Below are positions 2,425 through 47,113 of a stretch of 47,116 nt of DNA, one piece after another. The notes under the pieces are model-generated. The model did no database searches. It saw nothing but the letters and a program-made list of their open reading frames with translations, and was not told the origin of the DNA. Every line of letters starts with the position of its first letter. The stretch's first letter is position 1. The stretch comes from a virus (Duplodnaviria > Caudoviricetes): positions 1 to 47,116 of the IMG/VR virus record IMGVR_UViG_3300010361_000017. The stretch is one strand, 5' to 3'. The translations under genes and the position numbers were made by a program.

Positions 2425-2970
2425 TCATCTCCTAAGTAGATCAAAGAACCTTGCCTGGAGCGCGGTGTCGGTTTCAAACTTGCCGGTTACAGCATAGGTT
2501 GCAAAATCACCTTCGGTCCTAACACCCCTGATTCTGGCGCACATGTGTCTTCCACGGACGTAACTAGCTGTAGGGCTTCCGCCAGTAAGATCGCTAAGGT
2601 CTTTTGCGATACGGTGAGTGAACTCTTCCTGAAGGAGGGGTCTGCCATTCGCGAAGTTGACAACCCTAGCAAGCTTGCTGAGTCCGAGTACCTTACCTCG
2701 AGTTGGAAGGTAGGCGATACTGCATGTGAGTTTAACAGGCAGAAGGTGATGTGGACATAGGCTCCAGAGACTGTGGTTCCTGAGAAGCACCATGTTGCAG
2801 TAGTACTCATCTGGGAAGACCTCCCAGTTCGGTTCCTCCCGTTGACCGAACATTTCCTGGTAGAACCGAGCCACTCGTTCCGGTGTCTCCAGGAAGTTCC
2901 GGTTCCCGAGGTCTACCCCTAGCCCACGAAGCAAGAGGGTCACCCCCTGTTCGATCAGTAAAGGGTTCAA
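2425..2970 (-). CDS. folE: GTP cyclohydrolase I
   Basis: ETPERVAR, SLCPHHLLP, GLSKLARVV, LQEEFT, HMCARIRGV. Start placed at TTG 2970 where FolE-like sequence begins (ORF track extends to 3138); start uncertain. Confidence 0.93.
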   Translation of the reverse strand: MNPLLIEQGVTLLLRGLGVDLGNRNFLETPERVARFYQEMFGQREEPNWEVFPDEYYCNMVLLRNHSLWSLCPHHLLPVKLTCSIAYLPTRGKVLGLSKLARVVNFANGRPLLQEEFTHRIAKDLSDLTGGSPTASYVRGRHMCARIRGVRTEGDFATYAVTGKFETDTALQARFFDLLRR

Positions 2971-3274
2971 GAGCGTCTGCTTCGATGAGCGAGAAGCATC
3001 CCCAGGCTGCCGCTGCAAGGTGATCCTCCGTCTGACAGCCTTCGTCGCGGGCACGGAGGAGATGATCGATGATGTGATCAAAGACTTGGGTGTTCCATTT
3101 TGGGGATCTGAGTCCCTTTTGCCAGTTCCAGGCTCCATAGTTTACCTCTCCGAGTTGGTATCTTGCAGCGAGTCGCCGCAATGCGTTGCTTGGGATTAGG
3201 TCGTAACGTGGTGCTTGACTGGAGCGTTTGGCACCTGAGGTGTCGATCCAGTCCTGTTGTAGTGCGTTGCTCAT
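2807..3274 (-). CDS. dATP/dGTP diphosphohydrolase-like protein (DUF5664 type)
   Basis: SGAKR..PRYDLIP..ALRRLA..YQLG..NYGAWNWQKG..DHIIDHL..EDHLAAAAWG pattern; SD AGGAG. Confidence 0.85.
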   Translation of the reverse strand: MSNALQQDWIDTSGAKRSSQAPRYDLIPSNALRRLAARYQLGEVNYGAWNWQKGLRSPKWNTQVFDHIIDHLLRARDEGCQTEDHLAAAAWGCFSLIEADALEPFTDRTGGDPLASWARGRPREPELPGDTGTSGSVLPGNVRSTGGTELGGLPR

Positions 3275-3552
3275 ACGTTAAGATCTCCTATGTCTGTGGT
3301 GTAGGTAGTGAGCTGGTCCCTGAGGCGTTCGAACTCCGTTTTTGCAAGTCTGGGGCTCAGGTAGTCCTTTGGGCCGATGACGGTTCCGTCTACCTTAACA
3401 GCGATAACGGACCACGTTTGGACGCCGGCGATGTAGCGTTCCTTTAGGAACACCTTCCAAACCGCCATTTTGGTCACGAAACTATCGAGGACTGGTGCAG
3501 CCAGCACCGCCTTGATATCCCGCTGATGTGCACTCCTTTTCCCGTTCTTCAT
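3271..3552 (-). CDS. hypothetical protein
   Basis: 93 aa ORF coupled by ATGA overlaps to both neighbours. Confidence 0.7.
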   Translation of the reverse strand: MKNGKRSAHQRDIKAVLAAPVLDSFVTKMAVWKVFLKERYIAGVQTWSVIAVKVDGTVIGPKDYLSPRLAKTEFERLRDQLTTYTTDIGDLNV

Positions 3553-4247
3553 CTTAGTCCCAGGAACTTGTGGAGCTGGACGCTTAGTCTCCAGTTAGGA
3601 TGGTCCCTCAGGAGACTGATCGCCCGCTCCAGATTATCCTGATTTACCTCCTTATCGAGATTGATCGGTTGGACCCAAACGTTCGGATGGTTCAGTACCT
3701 CCACCGGAAGATGTTTCGGGAAGTCTTGGTCTACAAGGAGTTTCAGTTCCTGTGCGGATGTGAGGACGCCCAGGAGGTAACCTCCTTTTGGGCTGACCGT
3801 GACCCAAACATGGTTGTAACGCATCAGATCGGTCCAAGGGATGGTCCCGCTGGTCTCAATATGGACCCATTTGTCAAGATCCAGGATCATCCGGATCAGT
3901 GGAAGGATACGGTTCAGTTGTGCAAGTGGCTCACCTCCCGTGAAACAAATATGGTCCTCACGGCACTGGCCGAGGAGTTCCTCGTAGGTCGCGTGTTCAT
4001 GTACGCTAAAATCCGTGTCGCAGTAGAAGGGTCGGCCGTCGTGGGTACGGCAGGTCCAGGCAGGTGCACCACCTGTAAGGAAGGTCCGGCCGTCTGCGCT
4101 TGCAGGTAGGGAGGGTAGTGCTGTGTCCTTAAGGCGACCTACGGTGCAACCTGCAAGCCGGATGAAATACATCGGAGTACCTGTCCAAGTACCCTCCCCC
4201 TGGATACTGTGGAAGGTCTCCGCGAGTGCGAGTTGGTTAGCCTTCAA
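3549..4247 (-). CDS. queE: 7-carboxy-7-deazaguanine synthase (radical SAM)
   Basis: ETFHSIQGEG..G.PMYFIRLAGC, CDTD, FTGGEP, IETSG, TVSPK, WRLSVQLHK; TTG start with GGAG SD. Confidence 0.93.
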   Translation of the reverse strand: MKANQLALAETFHSIQGEGTWTGTPMYFIRLAGCTVGRLKDTALPSLPASADGRTFLTGGAPAWTCRTHDGRPFYCDTDFSVHEHATYEELLGQCREDHICFTGGEPLAQLNRILPLIRMILDLDKWVHIETSGTIPWTDLMRYNHVWVTVSPKGGYLLGVLTSAQELKLLVDQDFPKHLPVEVLNHPNVWVQPINLDKEVNQDNLERAISLLRDHPNWRLSVQLHKFLGLR

Positions 4248-4437
4248 AGTTGTACTCTCCTTTCTTTACCTTTACCCACCTGCCCGCATCGTTAAGTTGC
4301 TGGAAGCTGTCGGAAACATACCGGAGAACGATGATGGTGTCGTCCTCGGAGAGCTGTTTGAGTTGGGTTTCGTTTACATTCAGGATGTATGGAATTCCGA
4401 GATCGTGTTCGCTAACCACAAGTACTTTTTGTTTCAT
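4237..4437 (-). CDS. hypothetical protein
   Basis: ATG 4437 (MKQKVLVV) preceded by AGGAG; fills the gap between queD and queE. Confidence 0.65.
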   Translation of the reverse strand: MKQKVLVVSEHDLGIPYILNVNETQLKQLSEDDTIIVLRYVSDSFQQLNDAGRWVKVKKGEYNFEG

Positions 4438-4837
4438 GGGACTCTCCTGAGGATGGGATGTAGGTGCAATGGACTGTTTCGGTTTCCTGAACGTCAACTG
4501 CGAGGAGGAGAGGGAACTGACCCTTCCACCTGTTATAGAGGTAGTGTGAGAGACATTCCGCTGTGGTGTTGATCAAGGCGCCGTTTTCAAGCTCCTCCCG
4601 GAAGACCTCGTTCAGGTCCTGATGATCGAGCTTCTGATCAATCCAGAAACGAATCGGGTGGAGGTCACCGTAGTCCTGGACCCAGCCAACACCATCTGGT
4701 GCAAGTTCGGTGCTGCTGAGGGTAAAGGCGACGGTGTAGTTATGTCCGTGTTGACGGCCACAGGGATGGTCTTCTGGGACCCTGAGGAGGTGGTGTGCTG
4801 CACTGAATCGGAACAGTTTACTAATTGCCCAGGCCAT
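4412..4837 (-). CDS. queD: 6-carboxy-5,6,7,8-tetrahydropterin synthase
   Basis: FRFSAAHHL, CGRQHGHNY, DYGDL, LDHQDLNE, TTAECL, ETE; start at 4837 or 4858. Confidence 0.93.
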   Translation of the reverse strand: MAWAISKLFRFSAAHHLLRVPEDHPCGRQHGHNYTVAFTLSSTELAPDGVGWVQDYGDLHPIRFWIDQKLDHQDLNEVFREELENGALINTTAECLSHYLYNRWKGQFPLLLAVDVQETETVHCTYIPSSGESHETKSTCG

Positions 4838-5028
4838 GATGTTAGGAAGTCCTCCCATAGTGAGATGAAGTCTGCGGTGCAGCCGATGCAGAGGTGCTCC
4901 CCGATTTCACGGTTGGTGTGGAGCATCGTGCTCGAAACGCCGTCGTGAAACAGCAAGGACAGCGTGGTGTGCAGGTCGTGCGTACAAGGTTCCTTACATC
5001 GCGCACATTTTTCGGTGTAGTGAATCAA
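4612..5028 (-). CDS. putative zinc-binding protein (CxxC...CxxC)
   Basis: TTG 5028 after AAGGGG; CARC...HLCIGC; 3' part overlaps queD in another frame. Confidence 0.5.
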   Translation of the reverse strand: MIHYTEKCARCKEPCTHDLHTTLSLLFHDGVSSTMLHTNREIGEHLCIGCTADFISLWEDFLTSWPGQLVNCSDSVQHTTSSGSQKTIPVAVNTDITTPSPLPSAAPNLHQMVLAGSRTTVTSTRFVSGLIRSSIIRT

Positions 5029-5045
5029 GGAGCACCCCTTTCGGT

Positions 5046-5558
5046 CTAGAGCGGAACGTCTTCGGACGGTCCGGTAAAGGAACCGACTGCGGCTGCAGTT
5101 GACCGGCTTGCAGGCAGAGGTTCGTTGATCGACTTGAAGTTCCACGGTGCAATCCTGCTCCTGAGTTGTTTGCCCTCCGGCGCTTCCTTCAGGCTGGCGG
5201 GCGCGGGAGTCCCACGGTTGGTTGTCGGATCAAACAGTTCCCAATCGACCAGTCCGTAGATCTCACAGTCGTTGATGGTCTCCGGGTCGTGACCTTCGCG
5301 TCCCGGACGGTAGTTACACGCTTTGTAGATTGCCTTGAGTCCTCCCAGGGCGTGCGGTTGAAGACTGCAGTACTGGATGTGCATTTGTCCCACCTCGGGT
5401 TCGTCCTGACACACGAAGTGGTAGACCCAACTCTTTGCTCCTGGGGTATTCTTACTGTCCTGCTCCCCTTGACTCTCAATACGGAAACGGTGCCAACCCC
5501 GGCTTACAGGCACTCCGAAGTCAGCAACCTGTTCCATATCGTGACTATAACGCGGCAT
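5046..5558 (-). CDS. single-stranded DNA-binding protein (DUF669-like)
   Basis: PVSRGWHRFRI N-terminal pattern, low-complexity linker and acidic-hydrophobic tip (SEDVPL); near an AAA_24 ATPase; SD AGGAGG. Confidence 0.65.
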   Translation of the reverse strand: MPRYSHDMEQVADFGVPVSRGWHRFRIESQGEQDSKNTPGAKSWVYHFVCQDEPEVGQMHIQYCSLQPHALGGLKAIYKACNYRPGREGHDPETINDCEIYGLVDWELFDPTTNRGTPAPASLKEAPEGKQLRSRIAPWNFKSINEPLPASRSTAAAVGSFTGPSEDVPL

Positions 5559-5574
5559 TGTGTGTTCCTCCTGT

Positions 5575-5766
5575 TTAAGTATGGCTTGCAGTGATAGTCT
5601 GCAAGGCAGATTGAAGCACGTTCTTTAGGCGTACCTCAAAATTCGGGAAGGCGACATCGTACTGTTGACGGTCCTGTACGATCAGTCGCGGGCCTTCGTA
5701 GACGAGTAGCTTAACATACGGCCAGTCGTCACGGATGGTGAACTGATACTGAAGTAGGGTTGGCAA
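5575..5766 (-). CDS. hypothetical protein
   Basis: TTG 5766 after AAGGAG; 63 aa. Confidence 0.55.
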   Translation of the reverse strand: MPTLLQYQFTIRDDWPYVKLLVYEGPRLIVQDRQQYDVAFPNFEVRLKNVLQSALQTITASHT

Positions 5767-6676
5767 CTTGAAGCTCCTTTCGTCGAGTTGTGATCTCCTG
5801 CCAGAGATACGGCCAGAAGGGTGGGCAGTATCCCGCACCGTAGTTCCAGGGCCTCCCTTGTCCGCCACCCCAGGTGGTTGGGGCTAGGGATTCTAGTGTA
5901 CCGGTTCGGTCCTTTACCTCCCAGTAAGCGCCGCCACCACCTACGGTTTCGCGGATGGCGACGAGAGTTGGGGCACCGTTCAGGACACGGCTCCTAAGGA
6001 TCACATCCGGCAGGCGCCCTGCACGGCGTGCCCATTTACCGGTTAGGTCAGGTAGTCCCTTTATGCTGGTCGGTTCTGCAGCTTGAAGCTTGCCGCCTGG
6101 TCCGGCTACGTAGGCACCCTTGGTGTACTCCCTGTCAAGTTCCTCGTGGGCAGTGACCAGGATCTGACAGCCAAAAGCGAGGCTGTACCACTGAAGGACC
6201 CGCATCAGCTTTCCGAAGCGTTCGCCTGCCGGGTTCCAATCACTCAGTTCCATCAGTTCGTGTCCGGAAACAGCTTTTGCTTTACTTGCACATGCACGTT
6301 CCAGGCCGCTGGCACTGTCGATAATCAGGCTCCTCCAGCGTGGATCAAAACTGAGGATACTCTTCTCTGCTGCCTCAAAGGTTTCAGGGTCCTCAGGATC
6401 GTAGTGTTGAACCTTACATCGGGGGCCTAGCTTGAGGATCTCCTGCTGGATGCTTAGGGTACCGAGGTCGAAGTCCTCGATCCTAAGGGGTGATGGGAAG
6501 GTACCTGCAAAGCGAGTTTTCCAGGTACCGTACTCACCGAACACAAGCCAGAATAGGCCGTCCCCTCCGAGGCCTACTCGGCGGAGGGGACGATGTTCCT
6601 CGTGTCCTTGGTTTGTTTCGAGATGTTTCCCACAGGCACCACACCACCAGTGGATGTTATCGGGCAGGGTCCTCAT
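5729..6676 (-). CDS. AAA_24 / Sak4-like P-loop ATPase (recombination)
   Basis: Walker A GEYGTWKT, DFDLG, Walker B LIIDSAS, VTAHE; N-terminal CxxC..H motif. Confidence 0.8.
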   Translation of the reverse strand: MRTLPDNIHWWCGACGKHLETNQGHEEHRPLRRVGLGGDGLFWLVFGEYGTWKTRFAGTFPSPLRIEDFDLGTLSIQQEILKLGPRCKVQHYDPEDPETFEAAEKSILSFDPRWRSLIIDSASGLERACASKAKAVSGHELMELSDWNPAGERFGKLMRVLQWYSLAFGCQILVTAHEELDREYTKGAYVAGPGGKLQAAEPTSIKGLPDLTGKWARRAGRLPDVILRSRVLNGAPTLVAIRETVGGGGAYWEVKDRTGTLESLAPTTWGGGQGRPWNYGAGYCPPFWPYLWQEITTRRKELQVANPTSVSVHHP

Positions 6677-7398
6677 GCTTCCTCCAGGAGAGGATCGTTC
6701 AGGTTTGCGTCCGCGAAGCCTTTTGCGCGGACGGTGCAGGCGCCGCAGGTTTGACAGGGCCTGCCGTCCTCGTCAGGGTTGTAACATGACCATGTGAGAT
6801 GCCAGGGTACTTCGAGGCTTTCACCGAGCAGGACAATTTCCTTTTTGCTTAGGTGAAGGAGAGGTGCCCAGAGCCGAAAGGTTGCTTTTTCGTGTGGCCG
6901 GCCAAGTGCGAACTGAAGCGCTGTTTGAAGGGCATCCACGAACTCTGGGGTGCAGTCGGGGTAACCACTCCAGTCCACTGCGTTCACCCCGGTGCCTACG
7001 GTGTTGATTCCGAGGGTGTAGGCAAGTCCGGCAAGTGCGCTCAGGAGGATTGCATTACGTGCAGGGAGCCAAGATGGGGCTACGCCAGGATCGGGTAGGA
7101 CAGGCGCCTCAGCATCGCTGTACCTGCCTGTAGGGTTCAGGAGTGCGCTTTGCGTGAAGTTCTTTAGGGGAAGTTCACGTACAGACCAGAAACGGATCTT
7201 GGTCAGCTTGGCAAGCGCCTGAGCACCGCTGAGTTCCTTGTGATGTGACTGTCCGTAGTCGATTGAACACGCGAAGATCTCCTCCGGTGGATGATTACTG
7301 AGTGCGTAGTAGAGGACTGTTGCGCTGTCCATCCCTCCGCTTAGGCTGATTAGGATCGGACCTTCAGGCGCCCGAGGGCACCGTACATCATTTGACAT
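6673..7398 (-). CDS. queC: 7-cyano-7-deazaguanine synthase
   Basis: SGGMDS PP-loop, YGQSH, PARNAILL, YPDCTPEF, TWSCY, CQTCGAC. Confidence 0.95.
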   Translation of the reverse strand: MSNDVRCPRAPEGPILISLSGGMDSATVLYYALSNHPPEEIFACSIDYGQSHHKELSGAQALAKLTKIRFWSVRELPLKNFTQSALLNPTGRYSDAEAPVLPDPGVAPSWLPARNAILLSALAGLAYTLGINTVGTGVNAVDWSGYPDCTPEFVDALQTALQFALGRPHEKATFRLWAPLLHLSKKEIVLLGESLEVPWHLTWSCYNPDEDGRPCQTCGACTVRAKGFADANLNDPLLEEA

Positions 7399-9929: not shown

Positions 9930-10190
9930 CTTATAAAAACGGAACTTGTGATTCACAAAACATCGTGTCTAGTCCGTTTTGCTTTTCGCGGACGTTGTCT
10001 AACACTTTTAGAATCAACGAGTTAGCGTGTTTTATGCCCTTCTTCCCGAATTTCAATCGATCTAATAGAAAAAGCAAATACATAGAAAAGAGAACAAGAA
10101 GGAACAAAACTATATCTCTCTATATTCTAAAACTGAATATAAGATATCATAGAACAAGTAAAATAGAGGGCACAACGTTCACTCCAAGAC
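9930..10190. other. AT-rich non-coding region, candidate replication origin, with IHF-like site
   Basis: Most AT-rich tract in the window, A-rich on the plus strand (10060-10170); AATCAACGAGTTA (10012-10024) fits WATCAAN4TTR; inverted repeat AAAACGGA/TCCGTTTT around palindrome TTGTGATTCACAA. Confidence 0.5.
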
Positions 10191-10193
10191 TTT

Positions 10194-10218
10194 GGAGGGG
10201 TCCTGTCACAACCCCTCC
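10194..10218. repeat. conserved-loop hairpin, copy 1
   Basis: GGAGGGGT-CCTGTCACA-ACCCCTCC; same loop at 14613-14635. Confidence 0.75.
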
Positions 10219-10229
10219 GGCGGTTTGGG

Positions 10230-12673: not shown

Positions 12674-12934
12674 TCAAATATTCTTCATCCCGCGAAACGC
12701 CTCATCAACCCGTTGTTGCCACTCAGATTGAGGGAAACTGCGAGCGTAGAGAAGAGCGATAAGCTCACCGACCCCAAAACCACCGCGGCAGTTACCACTA
12801 ATCATGGCTTCCTGTGGCCGAAATACCTTGGAGTACACTTCGTAGGCTCGGAGCGTTACCACCTGTGGGCACACGGCAGCTTCCCACTGAGGACCCTTGT
12901 GCCTTTGCACGGGATGAACTGGAATTTCACTCAT
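12674..12934 (-). CDS. hypothetical phage protein
   Basis: ATG 12934 after GGAGG; AYEVY...RGGFGVGEL motif. Confidence 0.7.
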   Translation of the reverse strand: MSEIPVHPVQRHKGPQWEAAVCPQVVTLRAYEVYSKVFRPQEAMISGNCRGGFGVGELIALLYARSFPQSEWQQRVDEAFRGMKNI

Positions 12935-13202
12935 AAATTCTAACCTCCGCCGCCGCTTTTCCCTGTGGGTTCCACCATACCAGTGGTGCCTCACCATGAA
13001 CTACCTCCACCGCTACCCTCCCGCCTGCTTGGTCCCTCCTCCACCTGACCTCCACATGTGTCTGCCGGAACCCTACTAGCTCCCTCACTTGCTCCCTCGT
13101 CAGGTCCCTCACCTCACCGTTACCAACCTGAACGCGGCATACCGGCCCCGGCGGGGTCGTCCACACTCTGATCATCTCGCCTCCTTGTTGTTCCCTTAAC
13201 AT
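12927..13202 (-). CDS. hypothetical protein (two in-frame starts, each with AAGGAGG)
   Basis: Duplicated ACAAGGAGGCGAG before MLREQ and MIRVW. Confidence 0.65.
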   Translation of the reverse strand: MLREQQGGEMIRVWTTPPGPVCRVQVGNGEVRDLTREQVRELVGFRQTHVEVRWRRDQAGGRVAVEVVHGEAPLVWWNPQGKAAAEVRIYE

Positions 13203-13227
13203 ATACCGCTCGCCTCCTTGTGTTCAA

Positions 13228-13249
13228 ATTATACCACACACCTTGTCAA
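13228..13249 (-). promoter_or_regulatory. extended -10 promoter
   Basis: TGGTATAAT shortly upstream of the SD; a TTGACA lies only 10 bp upstream of the -10 (non-canonical spacing). Confidence 0.55.
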
Positions 13250-13300
13250 AGCGCCAGCGGGAAGTGGGACCCTTACCGGCATCCCACCCTCTCTCGGCCT

Positions 13301-13564: not shown

Positions 13565-13619
13565 GTTATCCTCTACCTGCACAACGGTAAGCCGTAGCGT
13601 GTTCACCAACGTGACATGT

Positions 13620-13890
13620 GCTTTCGGTCGTCCCGCTGTGCGTGTCGTCTACTAAACTGCTTCTAATATATATTTAGCAGCATCTCGCGCATCACCCTGC
13701 GAGCGAGACGGGTGGCTCGGCTGGCGGCGCTTTGCTGTCCGCGGGACTTAGACGGTGCCCCAGTGAGTCGAGTTGTCGCGTGATACTTCGAGGTGAGGTC
13801 GTCGCCGAGAGAGCGTGACAGTGCGAGGCCAACTCAGCCCACTGTGTTGCTCTCCGAGACTCACGCCTCGGGCTCTTCACCTTGTTTTCT
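13620..13890 (-). ncRNA. candidate structured non-coding RNA
   Basis: Multiple stems: CCGAGGC-GTGA-GTCTCGG (GNRA loop), GAGAGC/GCTCTC enclosing ACAGTG/CACTGT, TCTCGC/GCGAGA with possible pseudoknot, CTGCT/AGCAG; no convincing ORF. Confidence 0.45.
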
Positions 13891-13933
13891 CACGCTCGGT
13901 CATAGTGTCAAAGGCATCACCTCCTCTGGTTGT

Positions 13934-13960
13934 GGGCAGTTTAACGTCGTGCCCAGGACG
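13934..13960 (-). repeat. 27-nt H-type pseudoknot element, copy A
   Basis: CGTC CT GGGC AC GACG TTAAACT GCCC, 16 nt before an ATG with GAGGAGGTG SD. Confidence 0.8.
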
Positions 13961-13965
13961 CGGAT

Positions 13966-14169
13966 CTATTCGATCCTGTCGTGAATCCAGGTTTCTGCTT
14001 CGTCCGTACTATGGAACGTCCTCAGGACCTGAGTGGTGTCAGGTACATCCTCGAAGGCTAACTTGTATCCGTTACCTTCGATGGTTACCTCACGGACGTA
14101 TGCAAGGACCTCGTACACCTTCCTCGGCATACTCTTTCCACTGACAAACAACCTTTTACCTTTACTCAT
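13966..14169 (-). CDS. hypothetical early protein
   Basis: 67 aa; GAGGTG SD. Confidence 0.7.
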   Translation of the reverse strand: MSKGKRLFVSGKSMPRKVYEVLAYVREVTIEGNGYKLAFEDVPDTTQVLRTFHSTDEAETWIHDRIE

Positions 14170-14191
14170 CTACACACCTCATTGTGAATTA

Positions 14192-14218
14192 GAGCCTTTT
14201 AACGACTTGCTCAGGTCG
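14192..14218 (-). repeat. 27-nt H-type pseudoknot element, copy B
   Basis: CGAC CT GAGC AA GTCG TTAAAAG GCTC. Confidence 0.8.
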
Positions 14219-14226
14219 TGAGTCAT

Positions 14227-14538
14227 CTAGCTGTTCTCGAGCACCTTGTTCATCTCTACCCGAGTAGCCCAACCGAGCTTCTCAGCGAACTCAGGATCGA
14301 CCTGAGCACGACGAAGGAGCATCATTGCATCCTTCATCTCAGCCTTCGCCTTAGTATGGTGCATCTTGCTATGGCGAATGGTGTAGCCACCCTTGAACAT
14401 CAGGTAGCACACCTGGAAGTCGCTGAGCTTAGCAGCTTCGCGGAGCTTCTGGAGACTGAAGACGTTGGCGTTCTTCTGCCGCTGCCACTCAGTCTCAAGC
14501 GCCACGATCTGACTCAAATTGACATAAGGTTCCTGCAT
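14227..14538 (-). CDS. hypothetical early protein
   Basis: ATG 14538 (MQEPYV) after AGGAG. Confidence 0.7.
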   Translation of the reverse strand: MQEPYVNLSQIVALETEWQRQKNANVFSLQKLREAAKLSDFQVCYLMFKGGYTIRHSKMHHTKAKAEMKDAMMLLRRAQVDPEFAEKLGWATRVEMNKVLENS

Positions 14539-14612
14539 TGTATCATCTCCTGTGCGGTGCACCCCTTGGCTGGGCATGCGTTGCACGGTTCGGTCTGTAG
14601 AAGCACCGACGT

Positions 14613-14635
14613 AAGGGCTCCTGTCACAAGCCCTT
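14613..14635. repeat. conserved-loop hairpin, copy 2
   Basis: AAGGGCT-CCTGTCACA-AGCCCTT. Confidence 0.75.
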
Positions 14636-14645
14636 CGTGTCGAGG

Positions 14646-15080
14646 CTACCTGACCTCTTCTATCTCATCGTTAGTCAACTCGACTTTGTGTCCGTCTTCG
14701 TACACACGGAAGCACTTACGTTCCGTGACCTCCTCGCACTTAACGGTCCAGTTGCAAGGATAGTTTCTGATTTCCACACGAATGCGGTTTGAGTAACCCC
14801 ACTCAATGAGGAACCAGACTGTAGTGGGAAAGTTAGGATCCCTAGTTACCTTTGCACCACATGCAGCCACCATAGTCCAGTGACGATATATCGGATCGTT
14901 CTCTGGTGATCCTGCTCTGCCGTGGTAGGGTAGCTCTAGGTCTATCCTAACGTAAGGGCTGTCTGTGATCTGCATAGTAACTATGTTGAGACTTAAGGGA
15001 CTGTCCTCAAGTTTCTTCATTAGTTTATTGACAGCCTCAGAGACCTTACCCACTATGTTGTTGTACATCATGATGTTCAT
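14646..15080 (-). CDS. hypothetical early protein
   Basis: 144 aa; AGGTG SD. Confidence 0.7.
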   Translation of the reverse strand: MNIMMYNNIVGKVSEAVNKLMKKLEDSPLSLNIVTMQITDSPYVRIDLELPYHGRAGSPENDPIYRHWTMVAACGAKVTRDPNFPTTVWFLIEWGYSNRIRVEIRNYPCNWTVKCEEVTERKCFRVYEDGHKVELTNDEIEEVR

Positions 15081-15103
15081 GTTATCACCTATGTGTTGAA
15101 ATA

Positions 15104-15130
15104 GAGCCTTTTACTGTCATGCTCAGGACG
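15104..15130 (-). repeat. 27-nt H-type pseudoknot element, copy C
   Basis: CGTC CT GAGC AT GACA GTAAAAG GCTC. Confidence 0.8.
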
Positions 15131-15139
15131 CGAGTTGTG

Positions 15140-15319
15140 TTACTTTATTACGTGAGGCCTGAGACACTCTAGCTCAGGCCAGGAGGCGAGTAGCTTACGC
15201 CACTCGTCATTAGCATACCTCTTCGTAAGACGCTTGATCTTCTTCTGCATCTTACGATAGAGTACAGCTTGACGCCGATCGATAATCTCTTCGATCTGAC
15301 GTTTCTTGCGGTTAGTCAT
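15140..15319 (-). CDS. small basic hypothetical protein (first early gene)
   Basis: ATG 15319 (MTNRKKRQ) after AAGGTGG; the ORF-track extension to 15853 overlaps terS antisense and is not supported. Confidence 0.65.
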   Translation of the reverse strand: MTNRKKRQIEEIIDRRQAVLYRKMQKKIKRLTKRYANDEWRKLLASWPELECLRPHVIK

Positions 15320-15340
15320 AACGACCACCTTATTGAGATA

Positions 15341-15367
15341 GAGCAGTTTAATGACATGCTCAGGTCG
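15341..15367 (-). repeat. 27-nt H-type pseudoknot element, copy D
   Basis: CGAC CT GAGC AT GTCA TTAAACT GCTC. Confidence 0.8.
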
Positions 15368-15495
15368 CGTCATGGGTCGTGCGCGTCGTTCACAAAACGA
15401 GTCAGGCATCCCACGATAAAAATGACTCCCTAAAAAACCGTCACCTATCTCACGGGACCTTGAAAGACAACGGGCGGACCTGCACATACGGTGCC

Positions 15496-15534
15496 CAGTA
15501 CCGGCTTGTCCGCGTGTTTGTAATGGGGTATAAT
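15496..15534 (+). promoter_or_regulatory. late-operon sigma70-type promoter with conserved upstream box
   Basis: TTGTCC-17 bp-TATAAT upstream of terS; CAGTACCGGCTTGT box identical to the 9195-9208 copy. Confidence 0.75.
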
Positions 15535-15571
15535 CGGCTTTAGGCATAGGAACGCAGCTGGCGCTCAGGAC

Positions 15572-16216
15572 ATGGATATCAGACCTCCAGGACCGGGACT
15601 CGAACGACAAGCATTGCAGGCTGAGATAAGTCACCTTCGACTGCAAAGTGAAGGGAAACACGGAGGGCTCGGCAAACTGACACCAACAAACCGTCCAACT
15701 GGTGAGTGGGAGCGAATTGCAGAGATGGCCGTGGCCGGATTCACATACGGTGAGATGGCGATAGCTCTTACAAGATCTTATGCTTGGGTCCGCAGGCAGT
15801 TTCGGTCGGCTGAGCTTATGGAGAGGATCCGGACCTTGGATGCGGCTACACATAAACGGATCATGGAGCAGTACCAGCTCAGTACCGAATACTTCCAGAG
15901 GCGGCTGGATGAGATGGCGGATGAAGGGCTAAATGAGCTGGAGGAGCTTATTCAGAGTAAGAATGAACGGGTCCGCTTGGCTGCGGTACAGGATATCCTG
16001 GATAGGAATCCGCATACCAGCTCACGTGTCCAAGGCCAAACCGCCCAGGGGCAAGGTCCGAGTAACATTCAGTTCGGTGTCTTTCTACAGAACGTCGCAC
16101 AGGTTGTCAAGGAGAGTGAAACCAGCCTAAATGGCCAGCAACGATATATTAACCCTAGCCGCCAGCGGTCAGGCGACGGAGTTGAGGACCGAGGTCAGAC
16201 AACGGGCACTGAGTAG
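15572..16216 (+). CDS. putative terminase small subunit (HTH)
   Basis: HTH-like GFTYGEMAIALTRSYAWV, NERVRLAAVQDILDR; immediately precedes terL. Confidence 0.65.
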   Translation: MDIRPPGPGLERQALQAEISHLRLQSEGKHGGLGKLTPTNRPTGEWERIAEMAVAGFTYGEMAIALTRSYAWVRRQFRSAELMERIRTLDAATHKRIMEQYQLSTEYFQRRLDEMADEGLNELEELIQSKNERVRLAAVQDILDRNPHTSSRVQGQTAQGQGPSNIQFGVFLQNVAQVVKESETSLNGQQRYINPSRQRSGDGVEDRGQTTGTE

Positions 16217-17735
16217 CTTTTACTTTTTTGTGAAGGCCGTCCTGGGATACACCGATCTGACTGTTGAGTTCCATAAAGGGGTTTGTGATTTTCTGCAGTT
16301 TAGTAAAACTCACCGTCAGGTCCTCCTGCTTCAACGCGGTGCCTTCAAAACAACCATTGTCAAGAGTTATGCTATCTGGAGGCACGCAAAGGAAAAGATT
16401 GAAAACGGACGGGATATCAGCATGGTCATTGGCCGGGAAACGGATGACGGTGCCAAACAGACACTGAGAGAGATCAAAGGGCATTATAGGACTAATCAGA
16501 TACTTCAGTGGATTTTCCCTGAGGTCATCCCGCCCCAGGGTAAAGTGACCAGTCCTGACAGCCAGGAGGGTAAATGGGACGAGCATGAGATTATCCTGCC
16601 AAGGCTCCGTCCCCGTGCTGAACCCAGCGTAAGCTGTGTGGGGGTAGGCGTGGCGGTGACGGGCGAGCATTATGAGATGCAGATCAAGGATGACTTGATA
16701 GGTTTCAGCGCCAGTCGGTCAGAGACCGAGATGAACCGAGCGATAGACTGGCATCGGTATAGTGAAGGTCTGTTTGTGAAACCAGAACTTGGGAGTTCGG
16801 AGGATATCGTACTGGGAACCTACTGGACCGATAGCGATTATTATCATTGGATTGAGGAGAACGAGGCGGAATACGATTTCTACATCCGATCTGCAGTTGA
16901 GGATGGCCGACCGACTTTCCCCGAGCGTTTTTCGATGGAGACACTTGAACGGATCCGGAGGAAGCAAGGTGACTACATCTTCAGCTGCCAGTATCTGAAC
17001 GATCCGATACCGAGGGAAGGTGGAGACTTCAAACCTGACTGGATTGGGTCCTATGAGGTCGTGGACGACCGTGCCGTTAAGGTACCTAAGGAACCCTATC
17101 CGATTAGTGTACAGTATCTGGATAGGGTGGGGTACTTCGACCCAAGCCATAAAGGACTGATCGGTGGGGCTGAACACGCAGCCGTCGTGTTGGGGATGGA
17201 TAGCAGCTGGAACCGTTACCTCCTTGACTTTCGGGCGGTCCTAGGTGGGATCCGGAACGGACTGCATCAGGTACAGGAACTGAACGACCGGTGGATCTGC
17301 AGGTGGTTTTATGAGGCTGTGGGTGCCCAGACCTGGCTTGCGGATTTTCTGGTTGAGGTTAGGCAGTCACCCCGCTGTACCTTCAGGCTCAAGGAAGGAG
17401 ATCAGCCGTGTGGTAAAATGCACAGGAATTTATGGATGCAACCGAACCTGAAGCAAAGCACGAAGATGCATAAGGATGAAAGGATTCGACAGAATCTGCA
17501 ACCGGTCGTGGAGGAAAGGCGGATGTTCCTGAGGGCTGGTCAGGAGAAAGCAAGGAATCAGCTTCTGAGGTTCCCTACCGGAAAGCTCAAGGATGTTATC
17601 GATGCGATGGCGGGCGGGGTCACCTACCTGATCAGGCCGAGGGATGTACAGGTCCCAGAGGCGAGCGATCAGGTCCCGGAAGCACTTTTGCAGGAGATGA
17701 CCTCACGAACACAAACGGAGTTCTTCTGTGGGTAA
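16131..17735 (+). CDS. terL: terminase large subunit
   Basis: Walker A QRGAFKTT, Walker B IKDDL, GTYW, FSCQYLNDP, nuclease YFDPS...KDVIDAMA. Confidence 0.92.
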   Translation: MASNDILTLAASGQATELRTEVRQRALSSFYFFVKAVLGYTDLTVEFHKGVCDFLQFSKTHRQVLLLQRGAFKTTIVKSYAIWRHAKEKIENGRDISMVIGRETDDGAKQTLREIKGHYRTNQILQWIFPEVIPPQGKVTSPDSQEGKWDEHEIILPRLRPRAEPSVSCVGVGVAVTGEHYEMQIKDDLIGFSASRSETEMNRAIDWHRYSEGLFVKPELGSSEDIVLGTYWTDSDYYHWIEENEAEYDFYIRSAVEDGRPTFPERFSMETLERIRRKQGDYIFSCQYLNDPIPREGGDFKPDWIGSYEVVDDRAVKVPKEPYPISVQYLDRVGYFDPSHKGLIGGAEHAAVVLGMDSSWNRYLLDFRAVLGGIRNGLHQVQELNDRWICRWFYEAVGAQTWLADFLVEVRQSPRCTFRLKEGDQPCGKMHRNLWMQPNLKQSTKMHKDERIRQNLQPVVEERRMFLRAGQEKARNQLLRFPTGKLKDVIDAMAGGVTYLIRPRDVQVPEASDQVPEALLQEMTSRTQTEFFCG

Positions 17736-45730: not shown

Positions 45731-47113
45731 TTACCTCCCTGTTGTAAGATAACAATGTACCGTTGCATCGTGTTGTTCCCTAATTCTACCTCCCTCCTTC
45801 AGACTATTAAGCACGTTCCTTAAGGTGGCTGCATTCATCTTGTACTCTACGGCACGAACCAGGACACTATGATCGATTATGCCTCCGTGCTTTCCAACCA
45901 TCTTCAGGACGAACTCCGCTTGGACTCCGGCTTCAGCCTGGAACATACGTCGCACGGTGTCCGGCAGGAACCCTTCGGTCCACTGCACCAGATCAATTGC
46001 TCCGCGGGTACAGCGTTCACACACAACGCCGTTACGACATCCCGCCATATGGATGAGCATCGCCAGTTTGATACATCGATCAGGTCGCCGCTGCGCGTAG
46101 TTCGTAAGAACTTCTTCAGGTGCTCTCTTAAAGACCTCGCGCTGACTGTGATACCACTCGTCCCAGTACTGTCTCGCCGACGGATGGAACGACATCTGTC
46201 CTGAAAACTCTTTGAAGTTTGCAAGTCTAACGAGGAGCTTGGAACGAACCTCCGGATCAGGAACCGTGGGGATAGATTCCTCTCTGGCAGTATCTTCTTG
46301 TACGACCAGCATGAGTCGGTTGATGAAGCCACCGCCAAATGTATCTTCAGGAGTTGCCCGCACAAACCAGTCAAGTGTGCTCCCGCCAAGCATTGACAGG
46401 GCAACGTCACGGAGACCGGCCTTCCCCCTGCTAATAGTGCTCGAATCCCAGATATCCGGATTGTCCAGGAGCCGTGTGAGCAAGGGAACAAGGCCTTCAT
46501 TGTATCGTTGTTTGTTAAGGAACACTGCCAGTTCTGGGACATAGATTACCCCCGAGGCGCTGTCGCGCATTGCATCGATAAGTGCTTCTGGTGTCATCTT
46601 TTCGCTGTATATCTTAACGATACCCAGCTCCTGTAGCATTGTGATGCCGAGGTTCGTTCCAGTCGTCTTACGACAAATACCACTAGGAGCAATAAGGACC
46701 ACACTAAGATTAGGAAAAAGTTTGTAGACACCCATATCGAACCAAACACGACGCCCAACCACACTACCGACGCAACACAGAGACGTAAAGAGGTGAAACG
46801 CCAGGGGTGTTTCGCTATGGATGGTGTACTCACAATAGTCGTAGAAGAAACCGCGGGGGATAAGCCTCCACAGTTCGTGTTCGAGTTCGCTTGGGTCCCG
46901 GCCGTTTTGTACCGGTCGGATTTCCTCCTTGATCTTAGGTGAGACATGCTTGAGAAGTTCCTCCTGTGAGATGTTAAAGGTCCTGCAGACTGCATCGCGT
47001 AAAACGTCCTTTTGGGTTGCCTTTAGCTCTGTTGGAAAGTCCCTAAGCCATTGTATACTTCGGGTGAAGACCACGCTGTCGGTGTTTCGTTCCTCAGCAG
47101 GGATGGTCTCCAA
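45731..47113 (-). CDS. DUF3987-like P-loop NTPase (putative replicative helicase)
   Basis: SETPLAFH, FPNLSVVLIAPSGICRKTT, TPEAL, PELAVFL, GGFINR, C-terminal winged-helix-like region. Confidence 0.8.
   Translation of the reverse strand: METIPAEERNTDSVVFTRSIQWLRDFPTELKATQKDVLRDAVCRTFNISQEELLKHVSPKIKEEIRPVQNGRDPSELEHELWRLIPRGFFYDYCEYTIHSETPLAFHLFTSLCCVGSVVGRRVWFDMGVYKLFPNLSVVLIAPSGICRKTTGTNLGITMLQELGIVKIYSEKMTPEALIDAMRDSASGVIYVPELAVFLNKQRYNEGLVPLLTRLLDNPDIWDSSTISRGKAGLRDVALSMLGGSTLDWFVRATPEDTFGGGFINRLMLVVQEDTAREESIPTVPDPEVRSKLLVRLANFKEFSGQMSFHPSARQYWDEWYHSQREVFKRAPEEVLTNYAQRRPDRCIKLAMLIHMAGCRNGVVCERCTRGAIDLVQWTEGFLPDTVRRMFQAEAGVQAEFVLKMVGKHGGIIDHSVLVRAVEYKMNAATLRNVLNSLKEGGRIREQHDATVHCYLTTGR

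Follow-up and report, generated by a model that had tools for sequence, protein, structure and literature searches.

A widespread 27-nt RNA pseudoknot with a coremin-like core at gene borders in phages and bacteria

Coremin and related compact RNA folds

Coremin (xrRNA-C), an element of beny- and cucumoviruses, is built from a 4-bp hairpin whose loop follows YGAD or YGNNAD, a spacer, AAACUA, that is essential (A16-A20), and a second hairpin that is required (PMC6546385, PMC10520033). It stalls Xrn1 one base ahead of its first stem and also stalls ribosomes, and the coremin papers give the structure of the fold as unsolved (PMC6546385, PMC10520033, PMC10321173). Canonical frameshift pseudoknots do not stall Xrn1 (PMC10321173). 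Flaviviral xrRNAs withstand RNase J1 (PMC7603331). Structures between genes can likewise stabilise a processed transcript at both of its ends (PMC10311766).

We compared these systems with a 27-nt RNA element, hereafter the knot, which is present in four copies in a 47-kb phage record that occurs in soil metagenomes (the window, i.e., the whole stretch of DNA analyzed). The knot runs from stem 1 (3-4 bp, with a closing C-G pair) through C-U, the 5′ strand of stem 2 (4 nt), A-N, the 3′ strand of stem 1 and a 7-nt loop to the 3′ strand of stem 2; the 7-nt loop has UAAA followed by CU in 250 of 366 homologues or by AG in 81. It resembles coremin in size and in its siting just past stops and between genes, and the two share a 4-bp first stem closed by C-G, a C as first loop base, an A near the end of the loop and, in some copies, the spacer UUAAACU. 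In copy 4 the likeness extends to 16 positions (stem 1, the first loop C and UUAAACU). What coremin asks of its first stem is found here too: 3-4 bp, a loop-closing C-G (kept in 111/122 homologues) and a dispensable fourth pair, which is Watson-Crick in 77/122. The last loop base, just before the 3′ strand of stem 1, is likewise rarely C (U 193, A 123, C 29 and G 21 of 366 homologues). Of the coremin spacer AAACUA, copies 1 and 4 and the 250 homologues with CU hold AAACU; copies 2 and 3 have AAAAG. Position 20 is G rather than A. Unlike coremin, the knot has an 8-nt loop that starts with C-U instead of following YGAD or YGNNAD (U stands at position 2 in all four copies and is fixed in the patterns used to find homologues), this loop pairs as a 4-bp Watson-Crick stem with the bases right past the spacer, AG can take the place of CU, and the hosts are mainly bacteria and their phages. 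A second hairpin follows 21/232 phage-type and 18/124 genome copies, against 24/39 coremin loci. Judged by its sequence, the knot is thus not a member of coremin, given that the core matches but the loop G and the second hairpin do not; it may nevertheless work like coremin, with stem 2 standing in for the second hairpin. We infer that C-U forms major-groove triples with stem 2 and that UAAA makes A-minor contacts in the minor groove of stem 1.

Luteoviral (BWYV-type) frameshift knots and the preQ1-I riboswitch are similarly compact H-type folds with an A-rich last loop, and lie 5-9 nt from the decoding site; the knot differs from them in following real stops without a fusion frame and in having no ligand-pairing C, expression platform or link to que genes. 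In preQ1-I, a small H-type fold with an A-rich last loop, an invariant ligand-pairing C precedes the 3′ strand of stem 1. Selective RNA processing and stabilization is known from cggR-gapA and from the early RNase III sites of T7. The intergenic stem-loops of the cip-cel operon also resemble the knot, as repeated intercistronic structures proposed to set unequal cistron levels, but they are simple hairpins with mapped cuts, whereas the knot is a conserved pseudoknot with no mapped end (PMC10311766). The xrRNA-WCC elements, the Watson-Crick variant of coremin, share with it a canonical pseudoknot between the loop and the end of the spacer, with A-minor contacts proposed on stem 1; they differ in that their loop has 4 nt, position 5 must be G, the second stem is 3 bp long and Xrn1 resistance depends on the second hairpin (PMC10321173). 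With an 8-nt loop that starts with C and a 4-bp second stem, the knot does not belong to xrRNA-WCC.

Short contigs that encode coat, RdRP or PLA2 domains of eukaryotic-virus type also contain the same 8-nt-loop knot (loci L012, L392, L396/L410, L429 and L437), and in L012 and L392 it lies past a stop and ahead of the coat gene. In this setting it is probably a coremin variant beyond those of the coremin papers cited. A hairpin follows the knot in 7/10 short contigs of this type, a biased figure in that several were picked after the hairpin had been seen and half carry a Pfam label. The named-family check called for by the preliminary description gave no relevant match in Rfam: searches against Rfam 15 returned nothing for the 47-kb window at the gathering score and nothing relevant at E up to 10, and no match to the motif in 20 viral, 20 genome and 20 mostly scaffold-context loci. 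No description of the knot was found in the open full-text literature searched or in six supplement files of PMC10690425, though the motif could be listed elsewhere under another name. Nor did this literature mention xrRNA-type elements from bacteria or phages. On this sequence evidence, the knot is real and widespread, with a core like that of coremin, and absent from Rfam.

Four copies in the early arm and their distribution

The four repeats are 27-nt H-type pseudoknots in the early arm of the phage, all on the minus strand. The preliminary description had placed them at 13934, 14192, 15104 and 15341, which holds when these numbers are taken as the low ends. Copy 1 (15341..15367) has no gene upstream, and early gene 1 (15140..15319, 59 aa) starts 21 nt further on. 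Copy 2 (15104..15130) lies 9 nt past the stop of gene 1 and 23 nt ahead of gene 2 (14646..15080, 144 aa), and copy 3 (14192..14218) lies 8 nt past the stop of gene 3 (14227..14586, an ORF of 119 aa with a probable start at ATG 14538 after AGGAG) and 22 nt ahead of gene 4 (13966..14169, 67 aa, its first third replaced in relatives). Copy 4 (13934..13960) lies 5 nt past the stop of gene 4 and is followed by a Shine-Dalgarno (SD) sequence and a 5-codon frame (13900..13917) that is probably no gene. All these genes are on the minus strand, and none of the four has a family match. At the junction of genes 2 and 3, an ordinary stem-loop (14602..14645, minus strand) occupies the spot where the other junctions have the knot. 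The terminase small and large subunit genes (15572..17735, plus strand) open the divergent late arm, which puts the knots at the start of the opposite, early arm; virion genes lie on the plus strand from 15572 on, and replication and preQ0-synthesis genes on the minus strand.

Chance accounts poorly for this number of copies, since 0.02 were expected per shuffle and four were reached in 0/100 shuffles, and a structural descriptor gave no match in 200 Markov resamples of the genome. A fifth copy is absent from the whole 47-kb window at up to 3 mismatches. The compensatory swaps proposed earlier are present in both stems: stem 1 (P1) reads GAC/GTC in copies 1 and 3 and GTC/GAC in copies 2 and 4, and stem 2 (P2) reads GAGC/GCTC in copies 1-3 and GGGC/GCCC in copy 4. 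The claimed distance of three copies from the previous stop (5-9 nt) was correct as well. That each copy stands 16-23 nt before a start codon stood as to distance (21, 23, 22 and 16 nt), but only three copies precede a credible gene, because the ATG 16 nt past copy 4 directly abuts its SD and opens just 5 codons. After the four knots, the next predicted hairpins begin at distances of 13, 8, 5 and 5 nt and take in the SD, and none of the four copies is followed by a U-run. Frames extended through the knot from the three upstream stops run for 16, 15 and 21 codons, and none of these stops fuses to a gene.

Contigs of related phages from other soil runs keep copies 2-4, while in two of these phages 15144-15372 (copy 1 and gene 1) is swapped for 172 other letters. 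In two single 67-nt contigs of relatives, with depths of 2.9 and 2.5, gene 4 is deleted between copies 3 and 4; in one of them copy 3 runs into the tail of copy 4, and in the other the two SDs are fused. These replacements and deletions weakly suggest that a gene and its knot may form a module.

Outside this phage, we estimate that the four-copy pattern matches 1,400 IMG/VR stretches (123 loci returned from 6/64 parts) and 500 GTDB stretches (122 loci returned from 16/64 parts), with carriers that range over Firmicutes, Actinobacteria, cyanobacteria, Proteobacteria and crAss-like phages. In the viral matches, the variable pair of stem 1 is complementary in 128/128 and that of stem 2 in 127/128. 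As a control on covariation, each stem was left unspecified in a search of its own, so that pairing was not built in. With stem 1 free (~2,400 IMG/VR stretches), its pairs were Watson-Crick in 118, 119 and 117 of 122 copies and the fourth in 77/122, against shuffle maxima of 109, 72 and 66, and 53 for the fourth pair. With stem 2 mostly free (~2,100 stretches), Watson-Crick pairs were found in 110, 113 and 90 of 120, with G-U in 5, 0 and 12 more, and the outer P2 pair favored G-U over A-C (12 vs 4). In an alignment of 70 copies, hand-picked for variety and with relatives that are not independent, 93.5% of cells pair and compensatory changes occur at 7/8 pairs, against 31-42% pairing in slid controls. 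The knot is thus defined by two stems of 4 + 4 pairs, an invariant C-U, A and UAAA, an intercistronic placement on the sense strand and a wide spread. Tandem knots, with two copies or variants directly consecutive, occur at L250 (cr7_1), L175, L237 and L438.

Gene neighborhoods in phages and bacterial chromosomes

The preliminary description had tied the knot to the ribosome-binding site, and this link is not a general one: in phages as a whole it is the distance to the upstream stop that is tightly set, no more than 128/369 contexts have a strong SD within 60 nt, and the knot also stands before tRNAs. Among 243 viral contexts, the distance from the upstream stop to the core is 5 nt in 7 cases, 6 nt in 38, 7 nt in 16, 8 nt in 13, 9 nt in 9 and 10 nt in 9 (distances that run one larger than those of the preliminary description), or 92 in all, compared with one context at 0-4 nt and three at 5-10 nt on the opposite strand. 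The edge at 5-6 nt fits a knot that sits just outside the terminating ribosome. These stops are TAA in 80/133, with an extension of at least 50 codons in 9/133; stop-codon readthrough is excluded by these figures together with the three phage stops, none of which fuses to a gene. Downstream of the knot the sequence is AU-rich and G-poor; 87/369 homologues have 5 or more T among the 8 nt that follow, and 282/369 have no U-run. By crude ORF calling, and with contexts of less than 550 nt flank dropped, the neighbors on the two sides are on the same strand in 115 and 117 of 131 viral contexts.

Where both flanks carry a gene (76 contexts), Hsp20 lies upstream in 10 and ribonucleotide reductase in 3, both followed by varied genes, and the downstream gene encodes a head scaffold in 4; most neighbors have no family, and no que gene flanks the knot (0/76 downstream, 0/76 upstream). 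tRNAs start 3-12 nt downstream of the knot in 7/203 contexts, and in E. coli phage Rtp a tRNA follows at ~55 nt. In 5/13 cultured-phage regions (LL-H, KC5a, phiIPLA7, SA13 and D6E), the knot lies between the portal/minor-head genes and the scaffold and major capsid genes, and phage Page has a degenerate knot at this position (the BLAST matches in Page and Mangalitsa were missed by the relaxed descriptor and are counted as degenerate). Scaffold and capsid products are needed in far greater number than portal and minor-head products. In SIO1, the knot follows ribonucleotide reductase. The knot was not found in SPP1 (whole record) or in 80alpha (17-26 kb), so the published maps of these two phages cannot test it; 80alpha has a hairpin and U-run at its usual spot, ahead of the scaffold leader. 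In D6E and at L037, L040, L171 and L406, the knot is preceded by a U-run rather than a stop.

In 42/124 distinct contexts of bacterial genomes, the knot overlaps the end of a gene for a conserved ~20-residue (~20-25) His-Cys-x-x-Gly-Cys peptide or comes immediately after it (L128, L132, L145, L162 and 38 more; further loci are L554-L573), found in Desulfobacterota, Omnitrophota, Peptococcaceae and others. This gene is preceded by an SD and often by a promoter-like site. A pattern combining the peptide codons with six knot bases matched 20 places in 18/301 genomes of one phylum, of which 18 hold both the peptide and a full knot and the other two are chance matches. The genes that follow include those for Rrf2 regulators, CopZ, a Cu/Zn exporter and NrdJ, often with CopA or permease genes nearby, and 4 of the 26 loci that have long flanks are followed by a convergent gene. 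The peptide matched no NCBIfam family in 14/14 tries, apart from one chance match at E 0.05, and no radical SAM gene was present among 45 neighbors scanned; from its sequence, it is a candidate metal-binding microprotein or leader peptide. Many other genome matches were identified by eye as prophage scaffold leaders or small-gene clusters. Among 50 carrier genomes, chosen for diversity and mostly incomplete MAGs, RNase J exceeded the cut-off in 29 and RNase Y in 43, counts that have no baseline; RNase J was found in 0/8 Omnitrophota, Planctomycetales and Margulisbacteria MAGs with chromosomal knots, these MAGs being incomplete.

Possible functions at cistron borders

The preliminary description had proposed a cis-acting RNA module of one of several kinds. 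A pseudoknot outside Rfam agrees with this, and of the roles then listed a nuclease block or processing boundary fits best, though a general tie to the ribosome-binding site does not. We favor, with a probability of roughly 0.4, a reading in which the knot would be an RNA-decay barrier at cistron borders that mainly shields the RNA downstream. Like the coremin core, it would fold into a compact shape that is hard to unwind; a host endonuclease would cut the early transcript upstream and leave the knot at the new 5′ end, where it would slow 5′-end-dependent decay (by RNase J, or by 5′-monophosphate-dependent RNase Y/E), so that each small early gene downstream keeps a stable message. The knot may additionally slow 3′-5′ trimming of the upstream piece, and the gap of 5-6 nt past stops would keep it just outside the terminating ribosome. 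What favors a decay barrier is the unbiased covariation of both stems, the likeness of the core to that of coremin (16 positions in copy 4, with matching tolerance), the same knot in eukaryotic-virus contigs, ahead of coat genes in L012 and L392, and, for a site at cistron borders, the same-strand neighbors on both sides. Shielding of the downstream side in particular is suggested by knots ahead of scaffold and capsid genes, whose products are needed in greater number, and by copy 1, which has no upstream gene to protect. A decay barrier is weakened in that the second hairpin required by coremin is mostly missing and the loop starts with C-U rather than Y-G, in that canonical frameshift pseudoknots do not stall Xrn1 (PMC10321173), and in that some carriers have no detectable RNase J and an E. 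coli phage, Rtp, carries the knot. Against downstream shielding, the knot often tracks the upstream gene (Hsp20 in 10/76; the Cys peptide with a convergent neighbor in 4/26), and copy 4 has no credible gene downstream.

The main rival, which we consider doubtful, holds that the knot is a 3′-end cap that guards the upstream message from PNPase, RNase II or RNase R after termination or a downstream cut (e.g., by RNase P at a tRNA). 3′-5′ exonucleases are, to our knowledge, universal, and a cap would suit the spacing to upstream stops, the recurrence of Hsp20 and ribonucleotide reductase upstream of varied genes, the tRNAs that begin 3-12 nt downstream, the knot that ends the Cys peptide gene even where the next gene is convergent, and copies 2-4, which follow stops. 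It would, however, give copy 1 nothing to protect and would stabilize portal/minor-head over scaffold/capsid RNA, which is the wrong direction; the five knots preceded by a U-run rather than a stop also speak against it, as does the coremin core, which blocks from the 5′ side (PMC6546385, PMC10520033, PMC10321173). An unlikely alternative is a role directed at the ribosome, with the knot abutting the mRNA entry tunnel at termination and blocking sliding or reinitiation, or serving as a standby or S1 landing site that tunes the next gene. The ribosomal helicase is positioned at about +11 from the P site, which the 5-6 nt edge fits, and three phage copies stand 21-23 nt ahead of starts, with AU-rich, G-poor sequence downstream of the knot. 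According to PMC10321173, moreover, coremin stalls scanning ribosomes and promotes frameshifting, which the Watson-Crick variant does without a second hairpin. Knots ahead of tRNAs would be left unexplained, and predicted SD accessibility shows no consistent change when the knot is formed (0.21/0.28, 0.32/0.41, 0.77/0.34 and 0.04/0.03 for the four copies), which equally gives no support to an SD-sequestering switch.

We give a still lower rating to action on RNA polymerase, with the knot as a leaky terminator, a pause site or an antiterminator of the put type and the bacterial Cys peptide as an attenuator leader. The hairpin and U-run of knot-less 80alpha, the T-rich stretch after 87/369 copies, the clustering of four copies where the early arm starts, and the peptide gene, which has a promoter-like site before it, shares sequence with the knot and is often followed by Rrf2, CopZ or efflux genes, would agree with it. 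Yet 282/369 copies and all four in the phage have no U-run, which also speaks against an intrinsic terminator for the latter; separate hairpins lie past the knot at several peptide loci; and with four terminators inside 1.4 kb the distal early genes would be starved of transcription, internal promoters not having been found. It is very unlikely that the knot acts as a DNA-level site (an operator, promoter part or recombination site) or as a self-cleaving RNA. The gene 4 deletions between copies 3 and 4 could reflect the former, but they are single low-depth contigs, in one of which the crossover falls at the shared SD. The strand-specific motif also conserves pairing rather than sequence, G-U being preferred to A-C at the outer P2 pair. 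A self-cleaving knot would leave both new ends protected, in keeping with tRNA and gene borders, although the triple-helix model may already account for all invariant bases and leaves no obvious catalytic core. The least probable reading, to which we give almost no credence, is the preQ0/preQ1 or other metabolite switch raised in the preliminary description. The fold is small, H-type and A-rich in its last loop like preQ1-I, and the phage encodes preQ0 synthesis (FolE, QueE, QueD and QueC, 2425..7398, minus strand), but these genes lie 6.5-11.5 kb downstream of copy 4 and adjoin no copy, que genes make up 0/152 of the genes flanking the motif elsewhere, the base at the site of the ligand-pairing C varies, U and A being the commonest, no expression platform is present, and no Rfam riboswitch matched at E up to 10 or 5. 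Riboswitches are, in addition, described as rare in phages (PMC5473149).

If the favored decay barrier is real, a 27-nt element in thousands of phage contigs would be a common, unannotated layer of post-transcriptional control that explains how capsid and scaffold RNA exceed portal RNA from a single transcript, and the knot would be a small portable mRNA stabilizer. With its canonical second stem, the knot could also serve as a more tractable model for the structure of the coremin fold. More tentatively, the knot may be the bacterial-world form of coremin, a 27-nt exoribonuclease-resistant RNA common to DNA phages, bacterial chromosomes and eukaryotic viruses, with stem 2 in place of the second hairpin. 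Phages would use it to set polycistronic stoichiometry, and bacteria would couple it to the Cys peptide gene, whose translation would unfold the knot as a ribosome-switched control of stability; this wider picture we regard as possible, but on the doubtful side.

The FolE, QueE, QueD and QueC genes point to 7-deazaguanine modification of the phage DNA, although no transglycosylase was identified among the phage ORFs scanned. Searches with the phage terminase returned no related loci, the closest cultured terminases having only 22-24% identity. A second repeated element on the minus strand (14614-14637 and 10196-10219) is a hairpin with an identical 7-nt loop and one compensatory stem change; both copies lie directly past a stop codon, and it has no exact match in viral contigs. 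The ~320 nt past copy 4 (13612-13933, minus strand) hold no credible gene, fold no better than shuffles (z 0.11) and have no Rfam match; 13736-13961 differs from one relative at 3/226 letters, against 34/847 for the neighboring genes. Between the two arms, 15454-15586 forms an assembly bubble in which an alternative contig swaps 15484-15556 for 101 other letters, possibly a variable segment or the genome end. A long AT-rich, pyrimidine-skewed intergenic stretch at 9930-10190 (minus strand; the genome has 54% GC) is a candidate replication origin or promoter region. At 1324-2421, a uracil-DNA-glycosylase-like domain is fused to a family A 3′-5′ exonuclease, with no polymerase domain detected in the ORF, and a primase with DUF3987 lies at the far end of the record (45731-47113). 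An extended -10 promoter-like site (TG-N-TATAAT) at 13222-13254 (minus strand), past a GC-rich hairpin and ahead of the gene at 12927-13202, suggests a bacterial host with sigma-A-type promoters.
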